This document shows positions 2,910 through 33,470 of a DNA stretch of 33,685 bases, piece by piece. The first letter of the stretch is position 1; every line of letters starts with the position of its first letter. The notes beneath the pieces were generated by a model that saw only the letters and a program-made list of their open reading frames with translations, ran no database searches and had not been told where the DNA came from. The position numbers and the translations under genes were made by a program. The stretch is from a virus (taxonomy: Duplodnaviria > Caudoviricetes), in the IMG/VR virus record IMGVR_UViG_3300032290_000684, positions 1-33,685 of that record. The stretch is one strand, 5' to 3'.

Positions 2910-4316
2910 ATGGCAGGCTTAAAAACACTCGCTAAAGAACTTCAGAGCAAAGGTCGCTATGGCGATACTATCCTTGCCCATATTAATCCTCAAGAAGCAG
3001 GCATTCTAAAAGCCTTGGGTGGCTCAGGAACAAGAAACCCAGTTACGGGTTTACCCGAATACTTCTTTAAAGGTGTTTCTAGGGCGATTGCCGCACCTTT
3101 TAAAGCAGTTAATCAAGTAGTTAAAGCAATCCCAGTTATTGGTCCAGCTATTGATAAAGGATTAGTAAGTTTAGATAAAGCCGTAGGAAGTGCAATTCCT
3201 GGTGGTTGGAATACCCTTGCTCAAACAGCTTTAGCCTTTACCCCACTTGGACTGCCAGCAAAAGTAGGTCTTGCAGCTTTGGGTGGTAGCGGTGCTTTTG
3301 GCAAAGAAGGTAAATTTAATTTCCAAAAAGCATTACTAAGCGGTGCTATGGCTTATGGTATGAATCAACTAACCGCTGGTCTTCAAAATGCTGGCAGTAC
3401 AGCATACGATCCTTCTGCTGGTTTAACAAGTGCTACTGCTCAAACTCCTGTTACTGGTTCTGGTGATGTATTTAGTGGTTTAGCTGGTTCTGGTGGTCCT
3501 CCTGTTGAAGTTGCCCCAGAACTATTTAAAGCAGCTCAAAGCAATATAGACCCTTCATTTCTAGAAGGCATGAGCGCCTCTGATGTGGCTGGCGCCAATG
3601 TATTGCCATCTGTACCAAATGCCCCAGCACCTTCATTCTTACAGCAAACAGGGGCTAATTTGTCTTCTGCTGGTCAGGGTATAAAAAATCTATCAGGATT
3701 TGGTACTGGCACAGTATCAGAAGCTGCTACCAAATTTGCTGCCCCTGTAACAGCTGCTGGTATGACAGCTCTTGGGGTAGGAACTATGGGTCTTGCATCT
3801 TTAGACGAACAAGAAAAAGCATTAAGCCAACAATATCAACAGGGACAGGTAAACGATACAGAATACAATCGCCAGATGGCATTGATTGCTGATGGACGCC
3901 GCCGTGCTGAAGAAGCTATTAAGGCTAACCCATATCAATTTGCTAGAGGCGGTCAAGTAGACGATGAACTTGGCGGTGATTACTCCGCTATGGGCATGGA
4001 TCAAGGCAACCTACAAAAAGGTTTATTTGGATTAAATTACGCCATGGGTGGAAACGTTTCCACTCCTAGGTTTTTATCAGGCGGTGGAGATGGAATGAGT
4101 GATTCTATTCCTGCTCGTATTGAAGGCAAACAAGAAGCCCGTCTTGCTGATGGCGAGTTTGTAGTTCCTGCTGATGTCGTTAGTCATTTAGGAAACGGCT
4201 CTTCCAAAGCAGGGGCAAAACGCTTATATTCCATGATGGATAGGGTGCGTCATGAACGCACAGGCACTAAGAAACAGGGTAAGCAAATTAACCCAATGAA
4301 GTATATGCCAGCTTAA
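2910..4316 (+). CDS. Internal virion / DNA-ejection-type protein
   Basis: 468 aa, Gly/Ala-rich; N-terminal GRYGDTILAHINPQEA..GGSGT.NP.TGLPEY and C-terminal GDGMSDSIPA..LADGEFV motif (also seen in tape-measure-like proteins); GAGG RBS. Confidence 0.7.
   Translation: MAGLKTLAKELQSKGRYGDTILAHINPQEAGILKALGGSGTRNPVTGLPEYFFKGVSRAIAAPFKAVNQVVKAIPVIGPAIDKGLVSLDKAVGSAIPGGWNTLAQTALAFTPLGLPAKVGLAALGGSGAFGKEGKFNFQKALLSGAMAYGMNQLTAGLQNAGSTAYDPSAGLTSATAQTPVTGSGDVFSGLAGSGGPPVEVAPELFKAAQSNIDPSFLEGMSASDVAGANVLPSVPNAPAPSFLQQTGANLSSAGQGIKNLSGFGTGTVSEAATKFAAPVTAAGMTALGVGTMGLASLDEQEKALSQQYQQGQVNDTEYNRQMALIADGRRRAEEAIKANPYQFARGGQVDDELGGDYSAMGMDQGNLQKGLFGLNYAMGGNVSTPRFLSGGGDGMSDSIPARIEGKQEARLADGEFVVPADVVSHLGNGSSKAGAKRLYSMMDRVRHERTGTKKQGKQINPMKYMPA
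4048..4063. repeat. 16-bp palindrome GTGGAAACGTTTCCAC, copy 1
   Basis: Perfect palindrome inside CDS 2910-4316. Confidence 0.95.
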
Positions 4317-4325
4317 GGATAAATC

Positions 4326-5267
4326 ATGCCAGTACAAACAACTACAGTCACAGGCCAACAAGCCATCCCAGAACAGTTAATGCCCTATTTTACGGGGGCA
4401 TCTGGTATTCCTGGTCTGTTACCAAAAGCACAAGAAATATTTTCTAAGGGTTATGCCGAGCAATACGGAGATCCTTTACAACAAGCAGGATTGGCTGGTA
4501 CTGGTCGTATTGCCCCTATGTCTGCTATGCAACAACAGGTAGGTCAACAATTAGGACAGATGACTACCCCAACACAGTTTGGTATGGGCGCAGGAACAAC
4601 AGGCGCTGGTGCTGGCGCTATCGGTATGGGTTTAGGAACTTTAGGTGGTATGACAAACGCTGGTCAAGTTGGTCAGTTTATGTCTCCCTATATGCAAAAC
4701 GTATTAGACGTTAATAAAGCCGAAGCTCTAAGGGACGCACAAAAAGGTTTGATGACGCAAAACTTAGGCGCTGCCCGTCAAGGAACTTATGGTGGCGCAC
4801 GTCAACTATTGGCTCAATCTGAAGCAGATAGAAACTTACAAAACAGACTTGCTCAAATTCAAGCCCAAGGTATGCAGTCTGCATTTGATGCAGCGCAAAA
4901 AGCACAGTTGGCTCAAGCCCAACAGTATGGACAGTTTGGTCAACAGTTGGGTGCGTTGGGTGATGTATACACCCGTGCTGGAACAGCTCAACAAGCATCT
5001 GATATTGACCGTCTCAAAACTATGGGTGCTTATGGTGACTTACAACGTGCCTTTGAGCAACAAGGTATTGACGCACGATATCAAGACTTCCTTAAGCGGA
5101 TTGAGTACCCACAGCAACAGCTTGGTGGTATGGCTGACATCCTTCGTGGTGTGCCAATATCTAAAGTTGGTGAGACTCAAACAACGACAACACCTCCTCC
5201 CAGTTTTGCTAGTCAATTAGCTGGACTCGGTTTATCTGGTTTGTCTCTCTTTAATATGTTGAAGTAA
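4326..5267 (+). CDS. Internal virion / DNA-transfer (pilot-like) protein
   Basis: 313 aa, Gln/Gly/Ala-rich; FMSPYMQNV, GTYGGARQ, YQDFL...YP.QQL motifs and a hydrophobic Gly-rich C-terminus; AAGGA RBS. Confidence 0.7.
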   Translation: MPVQTTTVTGQQAIPEQLMPYFTGASGIPGLLPKAQEIFSKGYAEQYGDPLQQAGLAGTGRIAPMSAMQQQVGQQLGQMTTPTQFGMGAGTTGAGAGAIGMGLGTLGGMTNAGQVGQFMSPYMQNVLDVNKAEALRDAQKGLMTQNLGAARQGTYGGARQLLAQSEADRNLQNRLAQIQAQGMQSAFDAAQKAQLAQAQQYGQFGQQLGALGDVYTRAGTAQQASDIDRLKTMGAYGDLQRAFEQQGIDARYQDFLKRIEYPQQQLGGMADILRGVPISKVGETQTTTTPPPSFASQLAGLGLSGLSLFNMLK

Positions 5268-5276
5268 GGATTACAA

Positions 5277-6827
5277 ATGAGCATCCTTAGCGCCCTAAGA
5301 ACACAGTCTAATTCCATAGATGATTTGGCTAAATTGCCACAGGCAATGATTATGCAGATGGCTCAGAAGGGTCAAATTCGCGAGGATATGCTTGCCCCCA
5401 TTCTTTCTCGTAAAGCCGAGCTTGCTCAAGCTGCCGCTAATATGCGGGCAATGCAACAAGGTGATGCAAAGCAAACTGTAATGGAACAAATCCTTAGTCA
5501 GAACGCTATGGCAGAAGCACCTGAGTCAGCACGAGATATGGGTGTGGCACAGTTACCAGTACGGGAAGATATGTATAGCCCACAAATGATGGCTGGCGGT
5601 GGCATTGTAGCCTTCCGAGACAATCCAGATCAGCCAGTATCACTAGATATGCCAACTAGAGATCTTACAGAAGAAGAACGTGCATCTTTACAAAATAACC
5701 CATATTTACAACGTAGCCGTGGTCTTGCTAATTTTGGTCGTCAATTAGGACAGGCCTTTACTGATCCTAGAAACTACAACCCAGTTAGTCTTTATCAACG
5801 ATATATTGGCGATCCGTTTGCACAAGCAGCAAATAAATTTGTAAATGAAACTCCAGAAGAACAGGCAAAAAGATTCCGCACTGCACAAATGGCTCGTACA
5901 GGCGAGATCCCTATGTTTGCTGGTACTGATTTAACAACCAAAGGTAAGATGGTTGCAGAGGGCAGAATGAAGCCTAATGAAAGCGTTACTGATGTAATTC
6001 AAAAAGAACGTAAGCAACAAGTAGCAAGCAGAGATTTTGATACTACTGAGCAAGATAAGTCTGCTAAAAAAAGTGGAAACGTTTCCACTGCTAAGGTTGA
6101 GCCACAAGTTAAAAAAGAACCACCAACACAAGACAATAAACCACCAGAAGAGCCACTGTATTCTAAGTATGAAAAGATGCTTATGGATGAGCGTGAAGCT
6201 GCAAAAACAGCTAGAGAAGATGCCAAAAATGCCAGAATGTTAGAGGCTGGTCTGGGTATTTTAGGCGGAACTTCCCAGTATGCTCTTGAGAATATTGGTA
6301 AGGGCGCTGCCCCAGCACTTAGAGGCTATGCAGAAGATGTTAAAGGCTTACGTGCAGAAGAGCGTGGTCGTGTTAAAGAACTTCTTGGCATCGAAGGTAT
6401 GCGTCAAGACGCTAAGAGAGCAGCAGATGAACTTGCAATTCGCAAAGAATTGGCTGGATATACTGGACGTCAGGCAGCTGCCGCAGAAAAACAAGCAGGA
6501 AGACAAACCAGCACTGAGCAAATTATTGCCCTTGGTAAGAGCGCAGGTCTTAATGATCGTGAGATTATGACAATGCTATCTGGCGCATCTAAAGATCCAG
6601 ATCTGTCTGCCCGTAATATTGCTATGAAGGCATTCTACGAAAGCCCAGTATTACAAGCTCAATATAAGAATGACATTAACGCATTCTTAAAAGCACAAGG
6701 AATTGGCAGTCAAGCACAAGGATTATCATTACCAACAGGTTTACCGCCAGGATCAACGCAAGTAGGCACATCACAAGGAAAGCCAGTTTATAAAACACCA
6801 GATGGTAAACTAGTTACTGCTTCTTAA
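5277..6827 (+). CDS. Internal virion / ejection-type helical protein
   Basis: 516 aa; MAGGGIVAF motif, coiled-coil character, between the pilot-like protein and the giant protein; AAGGA RBS. Confidence 0.6.
   Translation: MSILSALRTQSNSIDDLAKLPQAMIMQMAQKGQIREDMLAPILSRKAELAQAAANMRAMQQGDAKQTVMEQILSQNAMAEAPESARDMGVAQLPVREDMYSPQMMAGGGIVAFRDNPDQPVSLDMPTRDLTEEERASLQNNPYLQRSRGLANFGRQLGQAFTDPRNYNPVSLYQRYIGDPFAQAANKFVNETPEEQAKRFRTAQMARTGEIPMFAGTDLTTKGKMVAEGRMKPNESVTDVIQKERKQQVASRDFDTTEQDKSAKKSGNVSTAKVEPQVKKEPPTQDNKPPEEPLYSKYEKMLMDEREAAKTAREDAKNARMLEAGLGILGGTSQYALENIGKGAAPALRGYAEDVKGLRAEERGRVKELLGIEGMRQDAKRAADELAIRKELAGYTGRQAAAAEKQAGRQTSTEQIIALGKSAGLNDREIMTMLSGASKDPDLSARNIAMKAFYESPVLQAQYKNDINAFLKAQGIGSQAQGLSLPTGLPPGSTQVGTSQGKPVYKTPDGKLVTAS
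6073..6088. repeat. 16-bp palindrome GTGGAAACGTTTCCAC, copy 2
   Basis: Perfect (18 bp with flanking A/T), inside CDS 5277-6827. Confidence 0.95.
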
Positions 6828-6836: not shown

Positions 6837-9800
6837 ATGCCTATTAAAGAGTTTACTGGTGAGCTAGACAAACCATTAGAACTAAAGCCGTTTACTGGTA
6901 CGTTAGACAATCCAGAAGATCAAGCAAAAATTGCCCGTGGATTTGTAGGCGGCGCTAAAGATATTGGTGCTAGTTTTGTATCTGGCGTTGGCAATCTCAT
7001 GCAATTGCCAGGTCAGATCTCTGAATTGGTAGGATTTACCAGAACAGGTGATCTTCCAGAGCAACAGAAGACTGGTCTTCAGGCTTTGGGTGCAGACATC
7101 CAGAAGTTTGGTGAAGAAGCTAAATCTCCCACATTAGTTGCTAAAGAACAGTTGCGGGCCAGAGAGATTGCGAAAGCCGAAGGGTTCTTTCAAGAAGCTG
7201 GCGCAGCTCTTAGAACAACCGTTACTGACCCAGCCTTACTGACATCATTTTTTGCCGAGCAGATTCCTAACCTAGTTGGTACATATGGATTCGGTGCTTT
7301 AGGTAAAGGCGGTGCTAAGTTGCTTATGAAAGAAGCAACAGAACAAGCCATGGCAAAGGTTGGCGTAGGTTCAGCCGTTGCTGGCGGTGCAGTCATGCAG
7401 GGTACAGATGTAGGTTATGACACCTATCAAACCATCTACAAACAGTTAAGAGAACAAGGCGTTCCTGATGAAGAAGCTCAAGGAATTGCTTTATCTAAAG
7501 GGCGTGTAGCCGCTATTGAAGCAGCAGGACTAAGCCTAGCATCGGCTAGATTGCCTGGCGGTACAGCAATTGAAAGAGCATTAGTTGGAAAAGGAATGCC
7601 TGGTACAGCAGGATTCCTAAAGAGTACTCTTGGAGAGGCTGCATCCGAAGCTCTAGAAGAAGGTGGCGGAGCGTTTGCTAAACAAGTTGGAATCCAAGAA
7701 GTATTCCCAGAGACTGATCTACTAAAAGGTGTAGGTGCAGCAACCGCATTAGGTGGCTTAGGTGGTGTATTACTAGGCGCTCCAGCAGGAGTGGTAAACG
7801 CACTACGAGCAAGAGGAGAAGTTCCTCCGCCAACTCCATTAATCCCGCCAACAGAAACGCCTACTGGAGTTATTCCTCCAGAAGTCTCAACGCTTCCACC
7901 TGAGACCCCTATTACAGATGTTACCCAAGCCACCCCACCTCAAGTAACTCCGCCAGAAGTTACTCAAGCTCCTCCAGCTCAGGTAACTCCTCCTACATTT
8001 GCAGAGCCAGCAGAAGATCCGTTTAAGAATTACTTTACTGGTATGCCAAAGGGTTCTGAGATCCTATTCCAGAATCGTGATCGTTCTACCCCAGCATCTA
8101 TTGCTCAGATGCAAAGCATTGCTTCTGCGCCAGACTACAAGCGGGTTAGCTACTCCAGAGACTTTGGTAATGGTGCGCCTGTAGTTATCAGCGACATTGA
8201 TATAGAAAGCTCATTGGCTAAATATCCAGATAGTCCTATTGGCGTTACTGGTGCAAAAGACTTTGCTGTATTGCCTAACGGACAAAGCGTTCCCATGATG
8301 TATGCCGTAGTTGAAAACGGAGTTTTGCTTACATCCAACAACGCAGACGGATCTAAGAGAGCGCTATACGAAGATCCAGATAAACCAGGATTGCGGGCTA
8401 TTGCTGGTAATGGACGGATTGCTGGCATTACTAAAGCATACACAACCCCAGAAAATTATGAGGCAGCAGAGAAATACAAGAGTGACCTGATTGCCGATGC
8501 TAAAAATTTAGGCATTGATCCAGAAGTAGTCAATAAAATGACAGCACCTGTTTTAGTTCGGGTGATGCCTAAGTCTTACCTAACACCTGATATCGCAGAT
8601 CTTTCGAATAGACCTACAGTTGCCAGACTGTCTCCCGTAGAAACTGCCAAGAATGATATCCGTAGGTTTGACTTAGGAGGACTTGAGTTCAACGAAGATG
8701 GCACTCCATCAGGGAAAACCCTAATGCAGTTCATCAATGCGATGCCTGTTGAGGAACGAACCGAACTAACGGATAAGTCTGGAAGACCAACCGCACAGGC
8801 TATAGACCGCCTTGCAAACGCTATTTTCCAAAAGGCATATGGTAGTGACTCCCTAATTGATTTATACGCTCAGGCAGCCGATCCTGAAGCCAAAACCATA
8901 TTGAATGCACTAGCTAGAGTAGCGCCTAAGATGGCACAACTAGAAGGTGCTGGTGAGTATGACGTCCGTAATGCCCTAATCCAAGCTGCTGAATTGGCAG
9001 TAAACGCTAGACGGGCTGGCACGAAGTTAGCCGATGCCGCTAAACAGATCAGTATGGATGTAGATCCTAATGCTGGGTTAGTCCTAGATATGTTTGCCAA
9101 GAATATCCGTTCTGGTAAGCGGATTGGTGAGCGCCTAAACGCATTAGCAGATGAGGCTTTGGCACAAGTTCAGGCTGGTGGCACAGATATGTTTGGTGCT
9201 GTTCCTAAGAAGCCATTATCTGAAATCTATAAGGCACTAGAAACCCCACCAGAAGAGCCAGGGTTATTTGCAGAGCCTGTTCCAGAAAAACCAAAAACTG
9301 TTACTGATGATGGAGGAGAAAAACTTTCTTTCCCATTATTTGTTGATATGGCAGATAAGGGATACAAAGTTCTTAGCTTTGATAACCCACGTACTTATCA
9401 AACAAAAAACGGTAACAAGTATAGAACCATTGAAAAAGATGGTGTTCGTCTAGCTTTAAATCCAGGCGAAATTATATTTGCAGATCCAAACTATCCTAAT
9501 CGTTCCCCTAGCTTGGGATATGGCGAATCAAATGAAATAACATGGCACTTTATTGGCGTAGATAAAGACAAACGTAAACAAGGTAAAGCCACTCAAGCTA
9601 TTCAAGACTTAATTGATGTTGCTGACAAAAATAATTACACGCTTTATGGAGAGCCAGCCGAGCTTGAAAAAGGCGGTATGACAGCAGAGCAACTGTCTAA
9701 TTTTTATAGTAGGTTTGGATTCCAGCCAAGTGAAGTAAGCAAAAAAGTTATTATTCGTGAGCCAAATCAAGCCTCTAAAAAAGAAATTAAACCAGAATCA

Positions 9801-12800
9801 GAGCCTATTGACTTTGACATTGATAAATCAAAAGAACAAATTGCTAAAGAAATAGATGGTTTAACTATTCCTGAGCTAGGTCAATGGGCTATTGATAACG
9901 CAAACAATAGTGCGGCAAGAGCAGTTGCCACCAAGGTTAAAAAAGTCTTAGATGGTCTTGCTGCTAAGAAGATGCTTCCAAAAAATGTTCGTGTTCGTAA
10001 TGGCGGTAGCAGATGGAGTACTGGCACACGAGGCAGAACCCGCACTACTTTTAGCAAACTTGGCACTACATTTGAATTAGAGTTCAACGGAATCCCTTCC
10101 GATGGTCAAGCTGACAGATTGACTGGCACAAGATATGTCACCATTTTGCATGAGTTATTGCACGTTGCTACCAATGGTGAGTTGATTTTCCTTAAAGACA
10201 CCAGCCCAATTTACAAAGACTTAAATAACATTCTTACTAAAGTTCGTAAGCAAGTTAAGTTAGATTCTGCTGCTGGCAAAAAAAGTCCAATTCTTTCTAG
10301 TATTGCTCGTGGCGCCAATACCATTAAGAACCCTAAAGAATTGGTCGCTTGGGGTTTAACTGATACAGACTTCCAGCTTTACCTAAGCAACATCAAGGTA
10401 GGAAAGAAGAAAACTTTATTTAATGAGTTGGTAGAAGTATTCCGTAAGTTACTTGGCATTAATGAAGAATATGAGACTGCACTTGAGGCGGTAATTCGTG
10501 CTACCGATCAGATCTTAGAAAAACCAATCTCTGAAATTACTGCGGAAATTGGTAAGACAGGGGTACGTTTTGAAGGCGAAAAGGTTGGCAGACAATTGCA
10601 AACAGATACGCCAGCATTCAAGCGTTGGTTTGGCAATAGCAAAGTTGTTAATGAAGACGGAAGTCCAAAGGTTGTGTACCACGGTACAGATAGGCCAGAC
10701 TATAGTGTATTTAACCCAGCTTCTTATTTTTCAGAATCGCCAAAAGAATCTAGTAGATATACAAATGTAAATGAATTAAAAAAACGGGAGCGTGGATTTA
10801 AAAAATTTACATTAATAGAAGATACTTCTCCTGCTGGCAAAACCGTTCCTTATGCTGGGATTTTAGAAGATCATGGTGATTTTAAGAAAAACGGTATTTA
10901 CGCAACAGACGATGGTGTATATAAATACATAGGCAATGGTAATTTTGAAGCATATAAAAATATTACTTTTGATTACGACACGGCAAAAGATTTGCCTAAT
11001 GGAGATACATCTGTTCAATTAAAAGAAGGGATATCTCAAGATGCTATAGATCGTGTAGAAGGATATAAACAATACCTCAAAGAATACTTCCCTGGCGGTG
11101 AAGGCGGAAGGGTGTATCCAGTTTATTTGTCAATTAAAAATCCTGTTTATTTAGATGCGTTTGAAGCAAATAGACTTGGTTTCCGTCTTGGTGCAACGCC
11201 AGAATTGATTAAGGAAACTATTGATAAATACAAGGCAATGGGCTATGACGGGATTATTACTGAAAGTGATGAGGCACGTCAATATGCTGATGTAAGAAAT
11301 GCTTTAGGTGGCATACCAAAACAATATATTCCATTTGATTCAAACCAAGTTAAGTCTGCTGTTGGAAACAAAGGAACATTTTCTCCTGTTAGAGAAGAAA
11401 TTGATGAAGAAAGTATTGCCCCTATAGCTATGGCTAAAGCTAAGGAGATGTTACAAAAACGCAAGCCTATTCCCATGGGTGCGTTTGCGGACGTAGATCC
11501 AAAGCTAGTCCAATTGGCACAGCCAGTCTTTTATCCACAGCAGAAGACGATTATTGACCGCATAGAGGGATTACGGGATAACTTCTGGAAGAAGACTGCT
11601 CAAGGTATTGCTGACCAATTCCGTGCTATCAAGGACTATACCGAAGAAGGGTATATGCAAGCCCGCCTGTCTAAGACAGTAGACGGTGCGTTAGAGGGAT
11701 TGACATTCTTTGGACAGGTGTTTGACGACAAGGGTGCGTTAAACATTAAACAAGGAACTAAAGGCTTGATGGATATCATGAAGCCGATTGGTAAGGAAGT
11801 AGATCGTTACCAGATGTGGGTTGCACTCAATCGTGAATCCCAATTACCCATGGAAAAGCGCACCAAAATGCCAAACATGGGAGAACTAATCAAGCGTAGG
11901 AATGAGTTTGCAGCAGGGACAATAGATGGCAAACCACGCTTAGAGATCTACGAAAAAGTCCGTAGTGAAATGAACGCTTTGAACAAGTCTGTTCTTAAGG
12001 TTGCCTTAGACAAAGGGCTAATTGATTCTTCCAGACAAAAGATTGATGAGCTAAATACTAGGGACTTCCTAACGACTAAGGATAAGGAAATCCTAACTCG
12101 TCCTTACAGAGAAGAGATTGAGCGTATCGAGAACAAGAAGGCTATGAATGTTACTGAGGAAGATAAAGATATCCTCAAAGATTATCGTGCCTTAATTCGT
12201 GATATCAACTCCCTAAACAATATGACGCCTGACTTGCGTCAAGAGTTGATTGATTATTACACCAATAATCCTGGTGCTTACGAGCGTTTCTCTGCCGACA
12301 TTAACTACATTCCTTTCTACCGTGCCATGGAAGACGGGGATTTACAGGGTGCATCCACAGCATCTGGTCTAACAAACCAACAGTTCTCAAAAGAACTTAC
12401 AGGCGGGGAAAGACCTTATGGCGATTTGATGGAGAATACTCTGCGTAACTGGAGTCATATCCTATCTGCCTCCATGAAGAATCAGGCGTCTAATACCACC
12501 CTAAAGGCAGCCACAGAGTTTGGTGCAGCAATGCCTAACCTAAAAATCCAATACGACTTTATAGATGGCAATGTTGTTAACCGTTCTACGGGCGAAATTA
12601 TTGGGGATGGAGAAGTTAAACCTTATATGACTACTGCCGATAAAGGCACAGTCAAAACTATGAGTGAAGGTCAGCCAATCTACTATCGTGTGCTAGACCC
12701 AATGCTTTTAGACTCCATTAGTTCTATTGGATATATGGGTCCGAAGTCTAAGTTCTTAGACGTAGCCCGTGACTTTAAAAATATGCTTCAGTTTGGTGTA

Positions 12801-14366
12801 ACCGTATCCCCAGCGTTCAAAGTCCGCAACTTGTTCCGTGACTCTATCTCGGCTATTGCAGTAACAGACCTTAAGAAGAACCCATTTACCAACGTTATCG
12901 AGGGATGGGCAGCCAGCGACCGCAACAATCCTGCTCATATCTCTGCCTTGGCTGGCGGTGCAATCTTTAACTTTGGTACTGCTTATGAAGGCGATCAGAG
13001 TAAGTTAATCAAGCGCCTGTTAGATCAGGGTGTAGATGCTAATACCATCCTAGATTCCCCAGAGAAGGTTAAGAAAGGCTTAACAATCCTGTGGGAGAAG
13101 TATAAGGATTGGGGTAATAAGTCTGAAGCCGCTAACCGTATGGCTTTATACAACCAGTTAAAGGCTAAAGGTTATAACCACCTAGAAGCGTCTTTCTACG
13201 CTAGAGACTTACTAGACTTCTCGATGCAAGGTTCATGGCCCGCCTTCCGTTTGGCAGCGCAGACCATCCCATTCTTAAACGCTCGTGTCCAAGGTCTATA
13301 CAAGCTCGGCAGAGACGGTATTACACCGACTACCCGTGTTCTTTACAACACCATCACAGGTAAAGAGATTGAGGCTAATGATGCCCAGAAAGCTCGTGCG
13401 TTTGGCTACACAACCCTAGCCGTAGCCATGGCGTCCATGCTTCTATACCTAACATTCAAAGACGATGAAGAGTTCCAGAAACGGGAAGCATGGGATCGAG
13501 ATAACTTCTGGTGGATTCGTTTGCCAGGTATGGATGCAGCATTCCGTGTGCCTAAGCCATTTGAGATTGGTGCATTCGGTACTATGGCAGAGCGTGTCCT
13601 TGAGCAGATCGTAGATCAAGGCGCTGAAGGTAAAGCCTTTGGAGACAGTATGTTCCGTATGCTCACCGATACGTTTGCTATTAATCCTATCCCACAAGTC
13701 ATCCGTCCACTAGTCGATATCTACGCCAACAAGGACGCCTTTACTGGTGCGCCTATCGAGTCTGCTGGTATGGAAAGGCTATCCAAACAAGAACGTGCAA
13801 CAGACAATACAAGCCCGATTGCACAGGCTTTAGGCGGTCTATCTTCCATCTTTGGAGAGAAGCTATCCCTATCCCCAGTTCAGGTTGATTACGCTATTAA
13901 GGCTTATTTTGGATGGCTAGGGGGTACTGCTACTCAGGCGTCCGTATACGCTACCGTACCATTCAGGGATGGTGCATACCCAGATATCAAGTTAATGGAC
14001 AAGGTAAGCCAAGGCTTTATCAAGAGTCTGCCGTCCGATCAATCACGTTATGTCACATCGTTCTACGAGAACAATAAGGAAATCAATCAAGCCTATGCTG
14101 ATATGCGTCACTACGCAGAGCTTGGAGAGACCGATAAAGTCCAGAAGATCTTAGAAGAGAAGGGCGATAAGATTGCTCTTAACAAGATGTACGATAAGAC
14201 TGCTAAGGAAATGGCTAATGTTCGTGCGCAGATCCGTGTCATTACTAACGATAAGACTATGGATGGCACAACTAAACGAGAGATGATTGATAGGATGAAA
14301 CAGATCTTGTCAATGCTGGCAGAACAAGCAGAAACAACTAGGAAGTCTCTGAAAGCAAACTCATAA
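6837..14366 (+). CDS. Large polyvalent virion protein: ddrB-like ParB, GNAT, zincin HExxH, ART-PolyVal-like and LPD38-like domains
   Basis: 2509 aa. QNRDRS..GAPVV..AGNGR..PVLVR (~8070-8565); RKQGKA..FYSRFGF (~9530-9730); HELLH (10149-10163); TPAFKRWFGNSKVV..VVYHGT..VYLSIKNP..GYDGII..QVKSAVGNKGTF (~10605-11390); WDRDNFW..RVPKPFEIG (~13460 onward). Confidence 0.85.
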   Translation: MPIKEFTGELDKPLELKPFTGTLDNPEDQAKIARGFVGGAKDIGASFVSGVGNLMQLPGQISELVGFTRTGDLPEQQKTGLQALGADIQKFGEEAKSPTLVAKEQLRAREIAKAEGFFQEAGAALRTTVTDPALLTSFFAEQIPNLVGTYGFGALGKGGAKLLMKEATEQAMAKVGVGSAVAGGAVMQGTDVGYDTYQTIYKQLREQGVPDEEAQGIALSKGRVAAIEAAGLSLASARLPGGTAIERALVGKGMPGTAGFLKSTLGEAASEALEEGGGAFAKQVGIQEVFPETDLLKGVGAATALGGLGGVLLGAPAGVVNALRARGEVPPPTPLIPPTETPTGVIPPEVSTLPPETPITDVTQATPPQVTPPEVTQAPPAQVTPPTFAEPAEDPFKNYFTGMPKGSEILFQNRDRSTPASIAQMQSIASAPDYKRVSYSRDFGNGAPVVISDIDIESSLAKYPDSPIGVTGAKDFAVLPNGQSVPMMYAVVENGVLLTSNNADGSKRALYEDPDKPGLRAIAGNGRIAGITKAYTTPENYEAAEKYKSDLIADAKNLGIDPEVVNKMTAPVLVRVMPKSYLTPDIADLSNRPTVARLSPVETAKNDIRRFDLGGLEFNEDGTPSGKTLMQFINAMPVEERTELTDKSGRPTAQAIDRLANAIFQKAYGSDSLIDLYAQAADPEAKTILNALARVAPKMAQLEGAGEYDVRNALIQAAELAVNARRAGTKLADAAKQISMDVDPNAGLVLDMFAKNIRSGKRIGERLNALADEALAQVQAGGTDMFGAVPKKPLSEIYKALETPPEEPGLFAEPVPEKPKTVTDDGGEKLSFPLFVDMADKGYKVLSFDNPRTYQTKNGNKYRTIEKDGVRLALNPGEIIFADPNYPNRSPSLGYGESNEITWHFIGVDKDKRKQGKATQAIQDLIDVADKNNYTLYGEPAELEKGGMTAEQLSNFYSRFGFQPSEVSKKVIIREPNQASKKEIKPESEPIDFDIDKSKEQIAKEIDGLTIPELGQWAIDNANNSAARAVATKVKKVLDGLAAKKMLPKNVRVRNGGSRWSTGTRGRTRTTFSKLGTTFELEFNGIPSDGQADRLTGTRYVTILHELLHVATNGELIFLKDTSPIYKDLNNILTKVRKQVKLDSAAGKKSPILSSIARGANTIKNPKELVAWGLTDTDFQLYLSNIKVGKKKTLFNELVEVFRKLLGINEEYETALEAVIRATDQILEKPISEITAEIGKTGVRFEGEKVGRQLQTDTPAFKRWFGNSKVVNEDGSPKVVYHGTDRPDYSVFNPASYFSESPKESSRYTNVNELKKRERGFKKFTLIEDTSPAGKTVPYAGILEDHGDFKKNGIYATDDGVYKYIGNGNFEAYKNITFDYDTAKDLPNGDTSVQLKEGISQDAIDRVEGYKQYLKEYFPGGEGGRVYPVYLSIKNPVYLDAFEANRLGFRLGATPELIKETIDKYKAMGYDGIITESDEARQYADVRNALGGIPKQYIPFDSNQVKSAVGNKGTFSPVREEIDEESIAPIAMAKAKEMLQKRKPIPMGAFADVDPKLVQLAQPVFYPQQKTIIDRIEGLRDNFWKKTAQGIADQFRAIKDYTEEGYMQARLSKTVDGALEGLTFFGQVFDDKGALNIKQGTKGLMDIMKPIGKEVDRYQMWVALNRESQLPMEKRTKMPNMGELIKRRNEFAAGTIDGKPRLEIYEKVRSEMNALNKSVLKVALDKGLIDSSRQKIDELNTRDFLTTKDKEILTRPYREEIERIENKKAMNVTEEDKDILKDYRALIRDINSLNNMTPDLRQELIDYYTNNPGAYERFSADINYIPFYRAMEDGDLQGASTASGLTNQQFSKELTGGERPYGDLMENTLRNWSHILSASMKNQASNTTLKAATEFGAAMPNLKIQYDFIDGNVVNRSTGEIIGDGEVKPYMTTADKGTVKTMSEGQPIYYRVLDPMLLDSISSIGYMGPKSKFLDVARDFKNMLQFGVTVSPAFKVRNLFRDSISAIAVTDLKKNPFTNVIEGWAASDRNNPAHISALAGGAIFNFGTAYEGDQSKLIKRLLDQGVDANTILDSPEKVKKGLTILWEKYKDWGNKSEAANRMALYNQLKAKGYNHLEASFYARDLLDFSMQGSWPAFRLAAQTIPFLNARVQGLYKLGRDGITPTTRVLYNTITGKEIEANDAQKARAFGYTTLAVAMASMLLYLTFKDDEEFQKREAWDRDNFWWIRLPGMDAAFRVPKPFEIGAFGTMAERVLEQIVDQGAEGKAFGDSMFRMLTDTFAINPIPQVIRPLVDIYANKDAFTGAPIESAGMERLSKQERATDNTSPIAQALGGLSSIFGEKLSLSPVQVDYAIKAYFGWLGGTATQASVYATVPFRDGAYPDIKLMDKVSQGFIKSLPSDQSRYVTSFYENNKEINQAYADMRHYAELGETDKVQKILEEKGDKIALNKMYDKTAKEMANVRAQIRVITNDKTMDGTTKREMIDRMKQILSMLAEQAETTRKSLKANS

Positions 14367-15352: not shown

Positions 15353-15507
15353 TTCTTTTGTGTCTTTCTTGCTTCTTTAATTTCTTGGAGCATTTTTTCC
15401 ATCAGGTCTGCGCAATAACCAACAAAAGGAAATTTGGTTGTTCCATTAGCAACACTTCGTGCCAGCCCAATAGTATTTTCAACTGTTCGTATGCTCACCT
15501 TTCTCAT
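15349..15507 (-). CDS. Mini-gene of the KAQEK array, 52 aa
   Basis: Hand-translated: MRKVSIRTVENTIGLARSVANGTTKFPFVGYCADLMEKMLQEIKEARKTQKK. ATGA-coupled. Confidence 0.7.
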   Translation of the reverse strand: MRKVSIRTVENTIGLARSVANGTTKFPFVGYCADLMEKMLQEIKEARKTQKK

Positions 15508-15662
15508 TTCTCTTGTGCCTTTCCTGTTTCACAAAACATCTGCTTGCTAAACGCATCCAATACCGCTTGCCTTGTTCTGTCATCAGGCATCTCTGCCAAT
15601 TCTTTATTTATCAACTCAGTCATTTCTTCTATAAACTGCTTTGCTGTTATAGCTATAGCCAT
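15504..15662 (-). CDS. Mini-gene of the KAQEK array, 52 aa
   Basis: Hand-translated: MAIAITAKQFIEEMTELINKELAEMPDDRTRQAVLDAFSKQMFCETGKAQEK. TAATG-coupled. Confidence 0.7.
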   Translation of the reverse strand: MAIAITAKQFIEEMTELINKELAEMPDDRTRQAVLDAFSKQMFCETGKAQEK

Positions 15663-15874
15663 TATTTTTCCTGTGCCTTTCTTAATGCTTGCTTAATCAT
15701 GTCAGCATCAGTTGTCTTGTTGATGATTAAATCGTGTATTTCCTCATCTGTTAGTGTCTTTACCTTGACCCAATGTATGTTTTCTACAATTAAATCCGCC
15801 CATTTTTGTATCCCATCAAGATGTAGTCCACAAGCAACTGTTCTTAAATGTGAAATGTATTGTTCTCTATTCAT
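15662..15874 (-). CDS. Mini-gene of the KAQEK array
   Basis: 70 aa with VKTLTDEEI and LRKAQEK modules. Confidence 0.75.
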   Translation of the reverse strand: MNREQYISHLRTVACGLHLDGIQKWADLIVENIHWVKVKTLTDEEIHDLIINKTTDADMIKQALRKAQEK

Positions 15875-21378: not shown

Positions 21379-21394
21379 GTGGAAGCGTTTCCAC
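21379..21394. repeat. 16-bp palindrome, copy 3 (GTGGAAGCGTTTCCAC)
   Basis: One mismatch; intergenic, between the terminator-like hairpin and the 21468 promoter. Confidence 0.9.
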
Positions 21395-21467
21395 TTAGTT
21401 TTTTTCTTTATTTAAATCAATAACTTACAATGGTTGTTTTTATTTATTAGGACTTTCCCTAATCCTG

Positions 21468-21496
21468 TTGCATTTTTGTCAGTAGTTTCCTATACT
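21468..21496 (+). promoter_or_regulatory. Sigma70-type promoter for the RNA leader and replication operon
   Basis: TTGCAT (21468-21473), 17 bp, TATACT (21491-21496), preceded by AT-rich DNA. Confidence 0.75.
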
Positions 21497-21508
21497 ACTT
21501 ACGCTGAG

Positions 21509-21535
21509 TTGGCGCTTGGCTTATAATTCCTAGCA
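21509..21535 (+). promoter_or_regulatory. Upstream antisense target module (b1/a1-like)
   Basis: TTGGCG (21509-21514) and TTCCTAGCA (21527-21535) are reverse complements of the bulge CGCCAA and loop TGCTAGGAA of the adjacent RNA. Confidence 0.75.
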
Positions 21536-21540
21536 TGACG

Positions 21541-21633
21541 AGACCGTTAAGGTCTGTTGTTTCGCACTATGTAAGTTTTGCTAGGAAGATTTACACAGTG
21601 TCACGCCAATGAAACGACAGATTTTAGCGGTCT
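21541..21633 (+). ncRNA. C4/CI-type antisense RNA
   Basis: 23-bp outer stem (21541-21563 with 21611-21633, four G-U pairs), 15-bp inner stem with one mismatch, loop-spanning TGCTAGGAA (21579-21587) and 3' bulge CGCCAA (21604-21609). Same architecture as P1/P7 C4 and P4 CI RNA. Confidence 0.8.
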
Positions 21634-21648
21634 TTTGTCGTTTGCAGC

Positions 21649-21830
21649 CTCGATATGTTGGACGGGTAAACACACCAGCGACATAGCGAGTAAGCAGACT
21701 GGGGGTAAGTGGATGTGATACTGCACAAGTAGGTGGCGAAGATAGTGCCTACTCCACGAAAGACTGTCGAGTGCTGTGGCTCCGAAAGAGAAACGGTTAA
21801 AGGCGCACTAGGTAGGCTGAGTGCGCTCAC
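21649..21830 (+). ncRNA. Candidate multi-stem structured RNA or ssDNA element
   Basis: GC-richer segment with no credible + strand gene, folding into consecutive stems and a three-way junction (see findings). Confidence 0.55.
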
Positions 21831-21853
21831 CAAAAGAGAACCTTGATATAACT

Positions 21854-22400: not shown

Positions 22401-23201
22401 ATGAAACTAAAGCTGGAACAAATTATTATCGACAAGGGAACACAAACCCGTGATGAGATAGATCAGAAGACAGTAACGGAATATTCAGAAGCCCTTTTAA
22501 ATAAAGAAGTATTCCCACCAGTAACTGTGTTTTATGACGGGGTTAAGTATTACTTGGCAGACGGGTTTCATAGGTATTTTGCCCACAAGCAAGTTAAATA
22601 TACTGAGATTGATGTAAACGTCACTAACGGCACGTTGCGTAATGCACTAGAGTTTGCCATTGGAACTAACGACAAACATGGATTAAAGCGTTCTATTAAA
22701 GACAAGCGTAAAGCCGTGCTGATTGCTTTTGATGATGTGGAGTGGGGTTCTTTAACCAATCGTGAGATTGCAAAGCTCTGCCGTGTATCCCATACCTTTG
22801 TGAATGATGTAAAAGAAAGCCTTGAGAAACCAAAAGATAAAAAGAAAAAAGATCCGTTAAAAGCACGGAACAAGAATCAGAACAATCCAACTAATATCGA
22901 CACCGATTTTACCCAAGACGACAAGGTTACAGAACTGCTTGTTACCCAGAAAGAATTAGAAGAAGAGAACACTAAACTGCTAGATCAGTTGGCTCTTAAG
23001 GTGATGGATGTTACGCCAGAACAAAAGAAGATGGCAGAACAAACCATCGAGGAACTACGGGCTGATAACAAACGATTGGAACAAGAACTAGAGTCCATGA
23101 CTACTAGCCGTGATGGTTATATGAGGGAAAATGCTGAGATGAAAAAGCAATTAACTTGGTATAAAAAACAGTTAAGTAAATTTCAAAAGGAAGTAGCATA
23201 A
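22401..23201 (+). CDS. ParB-like protein (ParB/Srx N-domain, HTH, coiled coil)
   Basis: Q.R..ID...V.EY..FPPV.V......LADGFHR N-domain; LTNREIAKLCRVSHTFV HTH; C-terminal coiled coil; AGGAG RBS. Confidence 0.85.
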   Translation: MKLKLEQIIIDKGTQTRDEIDQKTVTEYSEALLNKEVFPPVTVFYDGVKYYLADGFHRYFAHKQVKYTEIDVNVTNGTLRNALEFAIGTNDKHGLKRSIKDKRKAVLIAFDDVEWGSLTNREIAKLCRVSHTFVNDVKESLEKPKDKKKKDPLKARNKNQNNPTNIDTDFTQDDKVTELLVTQKELEEENTKLLDQLALKVMDVTPEQKKMAEQTIEELRADNKRLEQELESMTTSRDGYMRENAEMKKQLTWYKKQLSKFQKEVA

Positions 23202-23241: not shown

Positions 23242-24750
23242 ATGCTGAAGTTAAGACCCCACCAAACAGAGGTGGTGGAAAAGATTAGACAGGGATTTTC
23301 TGACGGCCATCGTTGCCAATTACTATATGCCCCAACGGGCTTTGGTAAGACTGAGGTAGCCATGGCAATCATGAAAGCGGTTGCAGAGAGTTATAAAAAG
23401 ACCGCCATGGTAATGGATAGGATTGTCCTGATTGACCAAACAAGCGCCCGTCTAGACAAGTATGGGATAGACCATGGGGTCATGCAGTCTACCCATTGGA
23501 GATACCGACCACAAGAGAGGATTCAGGTCTGCTCTGCACAGACATTGGAAAGAAGAAAGACCTTTCCCGATATCAATCTACTCATCATAGACGAATGCCA
23601 CATAGCAAGGCGTGGCGTTAATAAGTTTATTAAAGACAATCCCCATATAAAAGTCATAGGACTGACGGCATCCCCGTTTACGAAAGGTCTTGGAAGTATC
23701 TATACCCATATCGTAGGTGCTAAATCTACGGGAGATCTAGTAACGGACGGGTGGCTATGTCCTTTGCGAGTCTTTATAGCAAAAGAAATAGACATGGAAG
23801 GTGCTAAAAAGATAGCGGGTGAATGGTCTGCGGATGATGTTACAGAACGAGGCATCAAGATTACGGGAGATATCGTTACGGAATGGGAAAAGAAAACCCT
23901 AGAAGTATTTGGTAAGCCTGTAAAGACGATTGTCTTTTGTTCAGGTGTAGCCCATGGCAGACATCTACAGGCAAAGTTTTTAGAACACGGCTATCGGTTT
24001 GAGTCCATATCCTACAAGGAAGATGATGAATTTAAACGGGATACCATTGAGGACTTTTCCAGACCAGACACGGAGATCCATGGGTTGATTGCTACCGACA
24101 TTCTGACCCGTGGTTTTGACGTAACGGATGTCATGATCGGGGTATCTGCTAGACCTTTTTCAAAGTCCTTCTCATCCCATGTCCAACAGTTAGGACGCAT
24201 CATGCGAACCCATCCTGGCAAGGAGTATGGTTTATGGCTAGATCATTCAGGAAACTACCTACGATTTAAAGACGATTGGGATTCCCTGTATGAGGAGGGA
24301 GTAAAAGAACTTAAGGATGGTGGCGAGAAAGCCAAGAGAGAGCCGACCGAAAGAGAAAAGAAAGAACTGAAATGCCCTGCTTGTGAAGCCTTATGGACTA
24401 GCAAGACAGACAAGTGCGACAACTGTGGGCATATTCGTAAGCGTATGTCATCCGTCATCAACATAGATGGAGAACTAGAAGAACTAGCAGTAAGTAATGC
24501 TAAGTTAAAGATTAGCCCACAAGACTTTTATTCCCAACTACTCTACTACGCTAGGACTAGAGGCATCAAGGACGGGTGGGCTTACCATAAAGTTCGCGAG
24601 AAGTTTGGTGCATTCCCAAGGGGACTTGTGCCGACAGCAAAAGAGCCATCACCAGAAACCATGGGTTGGATTAAATCAAGATCTATTGCGTATCGTAAGG
24701 GTCAAGAAAAACTAGCAAGAAAGATTGAAAACATAAGGGCATCTTCATGA
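23242..24750 (+). CDS. Superfamily 2 DNA helicase (RadD/YejH-like) with Zn ribbon
   Basis: LRPHQ, APTGFGKT, IIDECH, GLTASP, LTRGFD, QQLGRIMR motifs; CPAC..CDNC. Confidence 0.93.
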   Translation: MLKLRPHQTEVVEKIRQGFSDGHRCQLLYAPTGFGKTEVAMAIMKAVAESYKKTAMVMDRIVLIDQTSARLDKYGIDHGVMQSTHWRYRPQERIQVCSAQTLERRKTFPDINLLIIDECHIARRGVNKFIKDNPHIKVIGLTASPFTKGLGSIYTHIVGAKSTGDLVTDGWLCPLRVFIAKEIDMEGAKKIAGEWSADDVTERGIKITGDIVTEWEKKTLEVFGKPVKTIVFCSGVAHGRHLQAKFLEHGYRFESISYKEDDEFKRDTIEDFSRPDTEIHGLIATDILTRGFDVTDVMIGVSARPFSKSFSSHVQQLGRIMRTHPGKEYGLWLDHSGNYLRFKDDWDSLYEEGVKELKDGGEKAKREPTEREKKELKCPACEALWTSKTDKCDNCGHIRKRMSSVINIDGELEELAVSNAKLKISPQDFYSQLLYYARTRGIKDGWAYHKVREKFGAFPRGLVPTAKEPSPETMGWIKSRSIAYRKGQEKLARKIENIRASS

Positions 24751-25532
24751 ATTTTGAAAGATTTGCTGAAATGCACGGGTTAATTATTCAAAGTCTGACC
24801 TTCGACAAATGGACGAGAGTTCCTACAACGTCCCATCCACACAAGAAGAATGGTGCGTATATCTATGACGGGAAGACGGGTGCGGTGCAGAATTGGGCAG
24901 TCCATGAAAAGCCCGTGTCCTGGCGAGGAGATAGCAAGCCTGACCCAATGTGGCAACAGAAAAAGAAGATCGCTGATGCGTCTAAGCAGGAACGACAAGT
25001 CAAGGCTAGTAAGAAAGCGGGATGGATACTGAACAACGCAGAGAAGAAAGACCATCCATACCTTGCTAAGAAAGGTTTCCCCACGGAGAAAGGGTATGTA
25101 TGGAACGATCTCTTGGTTATCCCAATGCGTATCGAGGGCAGTCTGGTAGGGTGTCAATTGATAGACAAGGATGGGAACAAGAAGTTTCTCTCAGGACAGA
25201 TTACCAAGGGTGCGTCTGCCGTCTTTGACAATAAAGGATTGGACATTATCTGTGAGGGGTATGCGACCGCACTATCTATCCGTAGGACTATGAAGTTTCT
25301 CAGAAAGAGATACACGATTCATGTAGCCTTCTCTGCTGGAAATGTTTCTACTTTAGCCACGGGAATAGAGAATTGCGTGATCGTTGCTGACCATGACCCT
25401 GTCGGGATAAAGACTGCCAAATCTACGGGTAAGAAGTATTGGATCTCAGATGTAGATGGAGAAGACTTTAACGACTATGAAACAAGGGTAGGGACAGAAC
25501 AGGCAAGCCTAACCCTCTCCTCTATTTTATGA
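24747..25532 (+). CDS. TOPRIM-domain primase
   Basis: HPYL.KKG, LVIPM, Q.I..DG.K.FL.G, ICEGYATA, AFSAGN, VADHD and DFND motifs; ATGA-coupled to the helicase. Confidence 0.9.
   Translation: MNFERFAEMHGLIIQSLTFDKWTRVPTTSHPHKKNGAYIYDGKTGAVQNWAVHEKPVSWRGDSKPDPMWQQKKKIADASKQERQVKASKKAGWILNNAEKKDHPYLAKKGFPTEKGYVWNDLLVIPMRIEGSLVGCQLIDKDGNKKFLSGQITKGASAVFDNKGLDIICEGYATALSIRRTMKFLRKRYTIHVAFSAGNVSTLATGIENCVIVADHDPVGIKTAKSTGKKYWISDVDGEDFNDYETRVGTEQASLTLSSIL
25336..25351. repeat. Degenerate palindrome copy (CTGGAAATGTTTCTAC)
   Basis: Three mismatches, inside the primase gene, encoding GNVST. Confidence 0.45.
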
Positions 25533-30226: not shown

Positions 30227-30242
30227 CCCTGACCCTCTCCTA

Positions 30243-30404: not shown

Positions 30405-30417
30405 GCCTGACCCTCTC

Positions 30418-31361: not shown

Positions 31362-31370
31362 GATCCCCCC

Positions 31371-31769: not shown

Positions 31770-31782
31770 TTTTTAGACTCCT

Positions 31783-32091: not shown

Positions 32092-32104
32092 ATAAATTCT
32101 CCTT

Positions 32105-32290: not shown

Positions 32291-32357
32291 GTCATTCCTT
32301 TATCTATAAGGGTTTAAGGGGTTAAATACCATATAAGCAAAAGCATTATATATGGTG

Positions 32358-32385
32358 ATCTTATCATACTTAACGGGCTTGTAAA
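32358..32385 (-). promoter_or_regulatory. Probable early promoter
   Basis: TTTACA (32385-32380), 16 bp, then TAAGAT (32363-32358) with a TGn extension; a TATAAT lies a few bases downstream. Confidence 0.45.
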
Positions 32386-32564
32386 TACTTTTGTTTACTA
32401 TTTCCCACTATTTAACACCTATGACATACCCTAATGTTTATTCATACAGTAATGGGTTTGCATACAGTAAAGAATCGGTATATGATTTGTTCTCATGTTA
32501 GACCTATGATTTACCACCGATTTACATAACCAAGATAAACCTAAAAAGACCGCAATTTATACAT

Positions 32565-33470
32565 ATGGCTAAGTTAAGCAAGAGGGAAATAAAGGAAGGA
32601 TTACAGGAGATCCCAATAGAGCAGATACTGCTAGGATCAGCCAATTCTAGAGAACTCACCCATAAACAAAAGACATTCGCCAAACAGGTCGCACTCGGTA
32701 AACCTAAGACTGAGGCTTATAGAATCGCCTACGATACAAAGGGAAAGAAATCCACTCAAGCCGTGAATGCTCATAAGGTGGCAAACAACGAGAATGTAAA
32801 ACTAATGATAGAGGCTTACTCAAGGGCTTTTGAGGCGAGGGAATACCAAAAACCCGAAAGATTAAGGGAACTTGTAATCCATCAATTGACGGAGATGGCA
32901 CTCAATCCCGAAGTAAAAGACGCCCAACGGATCAAATCCCTAGAACTCTTGGGAAAGGTGTCAGAGGTCGGTGCATTTACTGAACGGAAAGAAACACGGG
33001 TTATACACGAATCAAGCAAGATCAAGGAAAGACTAATAGAGCAGTTAAAGACAATCATCAATGTAGACGCCTCAGAGATAGACGAAGGCGAGAGTTTGCT
33101 CAGGGAATTATCAGGTTCAGATCTAAACGATTCAGAACCGCAAACCGAAGACCCCACCACCACCCGACCCCCCGATATTGACCACGCCGAACAGGGAACT
33201 GTAATACATAGTATTCCACACATCCAATCCGCTGCTTCTGACGTCTCTCCTGACGCTACTGATGAAAAAACGCCTCTGCAACCTACTGATTCTGAAGAAG
33301 AAAAAAGTGAAGTGGAAACGTTTCCACCTACCAAGTCGCAAGACGAGGGAGCGAATCCACCCCCAAGCAATGTAGAAAAAGAAGGGGTGGGGGTTACAAA
33401 TAATTGGGAAGAAGGAAAGAGTGAGAATATAGAAACACCCCCCCATGCAAATTGGAAAGAAAAGGGGTAG
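32565..33470 (+). CDS. Terminase small subunit-like protein with a long disordered acidic tail
   Basis: LTHKQKTFA..VA.G....EAYRIAY HTH and RIKSLELLGK...VGAFTERKE, typical of TerS; the last ~110 aa are low-complexity. Confidence 0.75.
   Translation: MAKLSKREIKEGLQEIPIEQILLGSANSRELTHKQKTFAKQVALGKPKTEAYRIAYDTKGKKSTQAVNAHKVANNENVKLMIEAYSRAFEAREYQKPERLRELVIHQLTEMALNPEVKDAQRIKSLELLGKVSEVGAFTERKETRVIHESSKIKERLIEQLKTIINVDASEIDEGESLLRELSGSDLNDSEPQTEDPTTTRPPDIDHAEQGTVIHSIPHIQSAASDVSPDATDEKTPLQPTDSEEEKSEVETFPPTKSQDEGANPPPSNVEKEGVGVTNNWEEGKSENIETPPHANWKEKG
33312..33327. repeat. 16-bp palindrome GTGGAAACGTTTCCAC, copy 4
   Basis: Perfect, inside the terminase small subunit tail, in a different reading frame (VETFP). 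Confidence 0.95.

Follow-up and report, generated by a model that had tools for sequence, protein, structure and literature searches.

The stretch of DNA examined here, referred to below as the window, is the entire viral record IMGVR_UViG_3300032290_000684 (positions 1-33,685), a 33.7-kb fragment estimated to be about 54% complete that encodes a lysozyme, virion proteins, a recombination block, a helicase, a primase and the terminase small subunit (terS). It also carries a dispersed palindrome and a gene, here called parB, for a ParB-like protein (P0001), and from sequence comparison we conclude that the palindrome is very probably bound by the ParB-like protein that the phage itself encodes. 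The features that bear most directly on this conclusion are listed here, ORF denoting an open reading frame.

4048..4063, no strand: exact palindrome, inside ORF 2910-4316, where it reads GNVST
6073..6088, no strand: exact palindrome, inside ORF 5277-6827, where it reads GNVST
21379..21394, no strand: palindrome with one mismatch, between genes, some 75 bp upstream of the promoter-like element belonging to the parB-helicase-primase unit
22401..23201, + strand: ParB-like gene, 266 aa (P0001), with a ParB/Srx nucleotide-binding fold, a helix-turn-helix (HTH) and long helices
22791..22799, + strand: codons of H131-T132-F133, residues of the recognition helix whose identities vary with bases 3, 4 and 7 of the half-site
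25336..25351, no strand: copy with three mismatches, probably a chance match outside the system
32565..33470, + strand: terS (PHROG 51, E 1.4e-8), whose 3' end is the family-wide anchor of the palindrome
33312..33327, no strand: exact palindrome, in the indel-rich tail of terS, where it reads VETFP, 158 nt before the stop
33438..33480, + strand: C-run/G-run/AT-rich element at the terS stop, beside the palindrome and common to the family

The palindrome GTGGAAACGTTTCCAC occurs exactly at 4048, 6073 and 33312, with one mismatch at 21379 and with three at 25336. In 100 shuffles of the window, with matches counted at up to three mismatches, the mean was 0.08 matches and none of the shuffles reached five, which bears out the claim of a preliminary description of this DNA that three exact copies exceed chance, and the copy with a single mismatch holds as well; its observation that the exact copies lie inside unrelated ORFs and in two reading frames (GNVST vs VETFP) was also correct. 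The 16-bp unit given there is a real palindrome, but across 112 sites from eight genomes, which also form the basis of the frame and intergenic counts below, the constrained unit is the 14-bp core TGGWAACGTTWCCA, and the outer G/C pair is variable. The copy at 25336, listed there as a further match, was rejected as a real site: about 0.9 such copies are expected per window (0.87 cores with two mismatches), and it is absent from the three distinct relative contigs that could be aligned. The copy at 4048 is kept in L095 and missing from the divergent L040 allele and from G007, while that at 6073 is present in four of four aligned relatives, themselves found through the motif, and is missing in G007. 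At the position of 21379, a perfect copy is present in four of four relatives found through ParB, despite differing or rearranged upstream DNA. The 21379 copy also scores as a terminator-like hairpin, and as it is the only copy with a T tract, an RNA hairpin or terminator was rejected as a general role for the palindrome.

To judge what level the constraint acts on, the site at 33312 was compared among 20 relatives of terS that had been searched with TerS residues 1-212 only, so that the site region was excluded from the query. Every base of the palindrome is kept in 20/20, and in 19 the frame reaches the site; the twentieth, L036 (2311-3150), has an in-frame TAA before the palindrome, yet its frame reads on with a conserved tail. 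Elsewhere in terS only 27 of 105 conserved four-fold codons are invariant, in contrast to a fully kept site amid indels. Some codons flanking the site are also invariant, so the terS conservation is supportive and not decisive by itself. Among the 112 sites, 48, 31 and 10 fall in the three frames and 23 between genes; measured against expectation, the intergenic sites number 22/112 where 10 would be expected. A constraint on the peptide was therefore rejected, given sites in all three frames and between genes and the L036 site behind a stop codon, and as judged from these alignments the palindrome is conserved at the DNA level.

The protein P0001 comprises a ParB/Srx fold (residues 1-97), an HTH (120-142), a disordered linker and long helices (172-265), and its structure model (pLDDT 82) places the HTH helices at 120-127 and 131-142. 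Profile searches matched Pfam ParB_N at E 0.0048, below the cut-off, and PHROG 1033 at E 9e-18. Foldseek of the model returned ParB, Noc and KorB (M. xanthus ParB at E 7e-8), and in VIA the best match covering both domains was KorB (8qa9; Z 12.8, rmsd 2.6, 133 residues aligned), with Z 13 over the N-terminal fold (residues 1-99). The preliminary description of a ParB-N, HTH and coiled-coil protein thus stands, the last part appearing as a long helical tail. The pocket residues Q15, R17, G55, H57, R58 and N90 are invariant among 52 homologs, and comparison of the CTPase motifs with 7o0n shows that the Gln-x-Arg, GxxRxxA and Asn elements are kept, that Phe occupies the position of the catalytic Glu and that the Glu before the Asn is lost. 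The canonical parB model TIGR00180 (NCBIfam) gave no match to P0001 at E up to 0.01 and the NCBIfam Noc model only a weak one, far below its cut-off; the ParA-binding motif, as defined in the available text of PMC12704722, is absent from P0001, whose fold begins at residue 1.

Some further members of the family differ in architecture. Among 30 scanned cellular homologs, seven have the ParB and HTH module fused to an MT-A70, Dam or N6/N4 methyltransferase or to RuvC; fusions to RuvC or methyltransferases were seen in L341 (598-1764), L558 (1190-2359), L282, L287, L310, L321, L332 and L337. The planctomycete chromosome CP087563.1 has at least nine homologs with several different helices (L275, L277, L285, L288, L289, L293, L307, L322 and L345). 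The close relative L116 has two divergent parB-like genes, at 149-991 (-) and 10001-10801 (+), with the helices SHTFV and SAMTV, and the window itself encodes at 6837-14366 (+) a polyvalent protein of 2509 aa that carries another ParB-like domain (ddrB-ParB) along with GNAT, ART-PolyVal and LPD38 domains.

The family is large, with an estimated 1,300 or so IMG/VR stretches and about 610 occurrences in bacterial genomes, and in it the site and the protein occur together, in unrelated phages and in bacterial elements alike. Among 112 ParB types, all of them found through the protein, the motif TGGNAACGTTNCCA is carried by 21/27 with an H-x-F/Y helix, 3/12 with another His helix and 1/73 without the His. 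Exact cores number 23 each in G001 and G003, 20 plus 3 in G004 and 7 plus 4 in G022, and all four have Ser/Thr-His helices. G001 and the window have only ParB (35% identity) and the helicase in common, yet G001 has its 23 exact cores; G007 shares 27 ORFs with the window, including a ParB that is 40% identical with the helix SATFV, and has zero sites. The provirus G013, which has a His helix, carries instead a 15-bp spaced form, with the same half-sites and a 1-bp spacer, twice (29548 and 29581) and only inside parB; spacer length may be a second switch. The exact 16-mer was found in 116 IMG/VR stretches. Relatives with several copies and no gene, which would have spoken against the pairing, were not clearly seen: of nine contigs with at least two exact copies, seven encode a homolog, one is an 11.7-kb fragment without a match and one consists only of short pieces. 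Fifteen single-copy records lack a homolog; for 14 of them completeness is below 90%, and the last is a full genome of 155 kb. A search by the DNA pattern only led to the contig L557, whose homolog (28% identity, helix SHPFV) has a site within its gene.

Among 79 cellular loci with a parB-like gene, the motif occurs in four, each time in or at a His-helix gene, and several His-helix loci are without it. In two bacterial genomes (6.0 and 4.2 Mb) the sole exact TGGWAACGTTWCCA sits in or at a His-helix parB-like gene. The broad H-x-F/Y class is a weaker predictor here, with the motif in 3/10 loci; a narrower helix class, which was drawn after seeing the data, gives 4/7 vs 0/72 (Fisher p 2e-5). 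A scan with a 16-mer for the SPQLV-type site was weak, parB lying within the flank in 2/61 loci, both SPQLV and both previously known. De novo palindrome searches gave nothing clear in G007, G010, G012, G013, G017, G018 and MW202426, and anchoring on terS or parB gave candidate palindromes for G012, G013 and G018. The 23-site phage G001 (L208-L210) was also seen to encode a lipid desaturase, a beta clamp, Mom, CsrA and an Erv1/Alr-family protein.

The letters of the palindrome change with helix residues 131-133 across relatives. To score this covariation, 101 loci with one parB, terS and sufficient flank were reduced by 90% dereplication to 62 types, and removal of homopolymer palindromes left 48 rows. 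H131 was the top ParB column for base 3 (z 6.8, next column 4.4), T132 for base 4 (z 5.6, next 3.0) and F133 for base 7 (z 12.0), and the best columns of TerS, used as a control, reached z 4.7, 4.1 and 8.8 for bases 3, 4 and 7. At residue 131, His goes with G at base 3 in 34/40 half-sites, Asn or Gln with A in 6/6, Asp with C in 4/6 and Pro with T in 6/6; the pairing of Thr133 with C at base 6 comes from one independent pair only and is uninformative. On a helicase tree of 76 rows, which does not include G001, G003, G004, G013 or G022, 73 rows show agreement between helix class and site (10 and 11 changes), and 5.3/7 independent pairs change in the same direction with none opposite (median p 0.0625); on a ParB tree built without the HTH, 4.7/6 independent pairs do so (median p 0.0625). 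The covariation of palindrome and recognition helix, which the preliminary description proposed as a check, is thus positive by the helix-class table and by residues 131-133, with a tree-corrected p of 0.0625. By range ends in VIA, H131 aligns with R173 of Caulobacter ParB; HTH-only PDB searches gave no ParB alignment, so that this equivalence rests on the range ends and assumes an ungapped last helix. In ParB R173 reads G in parS, and Noc has Gln there and reads A (PMC7383237, available text).

Conservation of the palindrome's position is strongest at the terS end, which lies about 7 kb from parB. A 14-bp palindrome is present within -200 to +250 of the terS stop in perfect form in 25/62 types (random windows, 3.3%) and with at least 6/7 pairs in 49/62 (random windows, 35%). 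The terS end of G008, which corresponds to the location of site 33312, has a cluster of five copies of another palindrome within about 430 bp. Outside this position, the palindrome that a locus has at its terS end is found 5.1 times per 100 kb, compared with 0.17 for foreign ones; recurrence beyond the terS region is seen in 18/48 loci, inside parB in nine of them, and is absent in 30/48. Many of the loci without recurrence are short, but the complete G007, G014 and G018 likewise show none, and the genome-wide dispersal put forward in the preliminary description therefore applies to some genomes, with up to 23 copies, and not to those 30 loci. Around the terS stop, a C-run is present in 61/62 types and a G-run in 57/62, compared with about 20% of random windows, and an IHF-like consensus matches in 19/62 types against 2.7 expected. 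Between 500 and 750 nt into terS, contig ends show an 8-fold enrichment (14 vs 1.7 expected), although they are not sharp and spread over about 200 nt of C/G-rich, indel-rich DNA. A small LexA-like HTH gene lies between terS and terL throughout the family (L408 11031-11267; G007 8872-9093) and in this phage would fall past the end of the window.

The parB gene itself stands in a unit with the following further features.

21415..21427, + strand: site resembling the IHF consensus, between the 21379 palindrome and the promoter-like element
21468..21496, + strand: promoter-like element TTGCAT-17-TATACT, with 3/6 and 5/6 consensus letters
23242..24750, + strand: SF2 helicase, directly after parB
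24747..25532, + strand: Toprim primase, by profile match

An SF2 helicase lies within 1.5 kb downstream of parB in 152/155 phage loci (nine more were too short to judge), and a helicase follows the parB-like gene within 3 kb in 33/72 cellular loci. The promoter-like element scores below the tool's threshold and is unlisted by promoter prediction; both of its hexamers are kept in 5/5 aligned sequences. The IHF-like site at 21415..21427 is absent in the four aligned relatives; IHF is described in P1 parS (PMC5016525, available text). Just upstream of the equivalent of the 21379 site, L117 (about 6410-6630) and L118 (about 3110-3330) have a short inserted ORF that ends beside the palindrome. In the leader of the parB-helicase-primase unit, the window matches the Rfam Betaproteobacteria-1 RNA (RF02932, 87.6 bits) at 21651-21772 (+), which hints at a betaproteobacterial host; a long conserved hairpin (about 21537-21647) directly precedes this RNA, and the region 21500-21850 (+) folds with z -5.7.

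Profile searches of 20 records, 13 of them near-complete, found ParA (PF13614) in 0/20 and 0/13, and none in the window (about 54% of a genome); a control family for this search was found in 14/14 genomes. The same records gave 0/20 for the serine recombinase PF07508 and the S24 repressor PF00717, and 2/20 (0/13 near-complete) for the tyrosine integrase PF00589, and Pfam scans of 83 ORFs of G001 and 71 of G007 agree with these negatives. The absence of ParA noted in the preliminary description thus holds for the window as far as it extends and for the records searched. Site spacing is more even than random in G001 (P 0.006) and G004 (P 0.003), and even spacing was rejected as a rule for the family, since it holds in 2/6 genomes tested.

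With regard to function, we suggest, tentatively, that the best reading is a KorB-like self-loading regulator that acts on its own operon and on the start of the packaging block. A dimer of the ParB-like protein would very probably read both half-sites through its HTH, and the conserved pocket would plausibly bind a nucleoside triphosphate, not necessarily CTP, and close a sliding clamp that dimerises through the long C-terminal helices. The protein may perhaps control the lytic programme from sites both close by and far away, through autoregulation of the parB-helicase-primase unit and action on terS/terL. The autoregulatory site would be the one before the promoter-like element in the window and would lie inside parB in other lineages, and at the terS/terL boundary the packaging and virion genes would start. 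Closely related phages have switched helix and site repeatedly, which would confine each clamp to the DNA of its own phage, and the outcome would be regulation and marking of the phage's own genome without a ParA motor. The intergenic excess of sites and the structural match to KorB support the KorB-like reading. Several observations weigh against it, or against the pairing on which it builds. Thirteen of the 62 types are without any terS-end palindrome, the motif is missing in 6/33 H-x-F/Y types (G013 included), and most sites are intragenic, with a closeness to gene starts that is weak (37 vs 27 expected). Base 6 is best explained by a ParB column outside the helix, other ParB columns reach z 8-9, which indicates that kinship inflates the covariation scores, and the independent-pair tests, consistent in direction, miss 0.05. 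The protein has Phe where M. xanthus ParB has its canonical catalytic Glu, and its top PDB sequence match is a sulfiredoxin. Finally, the near-fixed position of parB before the helicase fits a role in replication at least as well.

Replication is indeed the main rival, unlikely as we judge it to be. In phage lambda, the gene for the DNA-binding initiator O stands before helicase functions and contains an iteron array. The ParB-like protein could likewise be an initiator or helicase loader, with the palindromes as origins or restart points: a helicase follows its gene in nearly all phage loci and in many cellular ones (152/155 within 1.5 kb and 33/72 within 3 kb, as noted above), ParB and the helicase are the only ORFs common to the window and G001, and the site lies inside parB in 9/48 types, as one or two single copies, as well as in G013 and G022, and in or at the gene in all four site-bearing cellular loci. 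Apart from the G001 beta clamp and a weak RepB_C in G007, no DNA polymerase or other initiator was recognised among the 83 and 71 ORFs of these genomes. However, the phage protein differs from lambda O in its ParB fold, the sites are single, dispersed palindromes in most genomes and not iteron arrays, and the window's own parB has no site in it; moreover, virion and other genes contain up to 23 copies, the position conserved best is some 7 kb away at the terS end, and cellular homologs have methyltransferase or RuvC domains on the same module. A further reading, which appears distinctly unlikely, is a self-marking system of lytic phages: a motor-less nucleotide-gated clamp, made with the replication proteins, would load on a palindrome private to each phage by a code of three helix residues, and its fixed terS-end site would couple replication to the selection of DNA for packaging, so that co-infecting relatives could tell their genomes apart. 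It is also quite improbable that the clamp simply marks its own DNA for packaging, the terS-end site belonging to a pac-like element at which the protein licenses or positions terminase. The excess of perfect terS-end palindromes (25/62 types vs 3.3%), whose sequence switches with the helix, fits this, as do the adjoining C-run/G-run element, the IHF-like matches (19/62 vs 2.7) and the 8-fold enrichment of contig ends in terS (14 vs 1.7); but those ends scatter across about 200 nt of DNA rich in C/G and indels, and assembly breaks would account for them as well, the terS end is also likely the start of the terL/virion transcript, and the single cellular sites at parB are left unexplained.

The preliminary description also considered partition of an extrachromosomal state. 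A parS-like centromere of a plasmid-like or carrier state, served by a host ParA or by no motor, would account for the ParB fold with palindromic sites, for the lack of an integrase in 13 near-complete genomes, for the five sites within about 430 bp in G008 and for the even spacing in G001 and G004. We nevertheless regard it as very unlikely: ParA was found in 0/20 records and the S24 repressor in 0/20, P0001 has no ParA-binding motif and its fold starts at residue 1, and four other tested genomes are not evenly spaced. The lack of ParA, integrase and repressor in near-complete relatives makes partition unlikely in general. Least probable of all, and highly so, is another binder, whether the LexA-like HTH protein after terS, a sigma70-r4 HTH protein at 21821 or a host LacI-type repressor. 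The palindrome has a LacI-like shape, the 21379 copy also folds as a terminator-like hairpin, and the LexA-like gene is present in 47/48 types with a terS-end site and reaches z 6.1 for base 3, near ParB's 6.6 in this comparison. Its scores for bases 4 and 7 (z 2.5 and 6.6) fall below those of ParB (4.3 and 12.9), however, LexA-like proteins that are nearly identical accompany different sites (L184 and L453; L202 and G014), and the gene was not found in G001, G003, G004 and G022, where sites number 11-23. For the sigma70-r4 ORF, BLAST comparison with 19 genomes gave no match, and a host regulator is unlikely because the exact motif is unique in genomes of 4-6 Mb.

Among known systems, KorB of plasmid RK2 has a ParA-type partner, IncC, whereas these apparently non-integrating, tailed phages are without a ParA partner (0/20 records) and their site switches among close relatives. 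KorB also has KorA, a co-repressor that locks its clamp; a counterpart of KorA was not identified in these phages, though no search was aimed at one. The phage protein is 18% identical to KorB and has a long helical C-terminal part; in common with KorB and its operator OB it has the arrangement of a ParB-family N-terminal domain and an HTH, and KorB exemplifies a ParB used for gene control, with short operators near and far from promoters (PMC11790492, available text). ParB-parS and Noc-NBS (PMC7383237 and PMC8429893, in the parts available) are alike in fold, in having a palindromic site of similar length and in that the residue after the helix Ser sets G vs A, as R173/Q173 do; Noc likewise works outside a parAB operon. 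The phage protein differs from these in having no TIGR00180 match, ParA motif or catalytic Glu, and in a specificity that is labile and not conserved in the family. It would work like KorB or Noc and is not a member of ParABS. With the orphan ParB-CTPase-fold proteins of PMC12704722, as described in its available text, the present family shares a divergent fold, the lack of a ParA motif, occurrence on phages and mobile elements and fusions of homologs to methyltransferases. Such orphan proteins are common on phages, and their DNA targets and jobs are mostly unassigned in that account; its main text, as available, does not contain 'palindrom' and describes no cognate sites or recognition code, and its datasets may include a member of the present family. 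In the LacI family, specificity is set at the same positions: AA-15 varies with the 5th base counted from the centre and AA-16 with the 4th (PMC2978694, available text), as H131 and T132 do here, and many homologs of the phage family have T-V-G-R where LacI members have T-V-S-R; unlike in LacI, the HTH is carried on a ParB nucleotide-binding domain with no sugar-binding core, and F133 also tracks the central bases.

Our literature search, with most subscription journals outside it, found no account of cognate palindromes for this ParB family. The family is large and offers readable cognate sites together with a natural series of specificity switches at three residues, and because the sites can be read and the switches map to those residues, function is directly testable. 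The ParB/site pairs are candidate orthogonal pairs for DNA labelling, and the fixed site beside the terminase genes suggests a function in late control or packaging that is undescribed for a ParB in the literature examined. Elsewhere in the window, a run of short ORFs at 15504-16588 (-) was seen to share the repeat families D1-D3 and D5 and to have similar LRKAQE tails.

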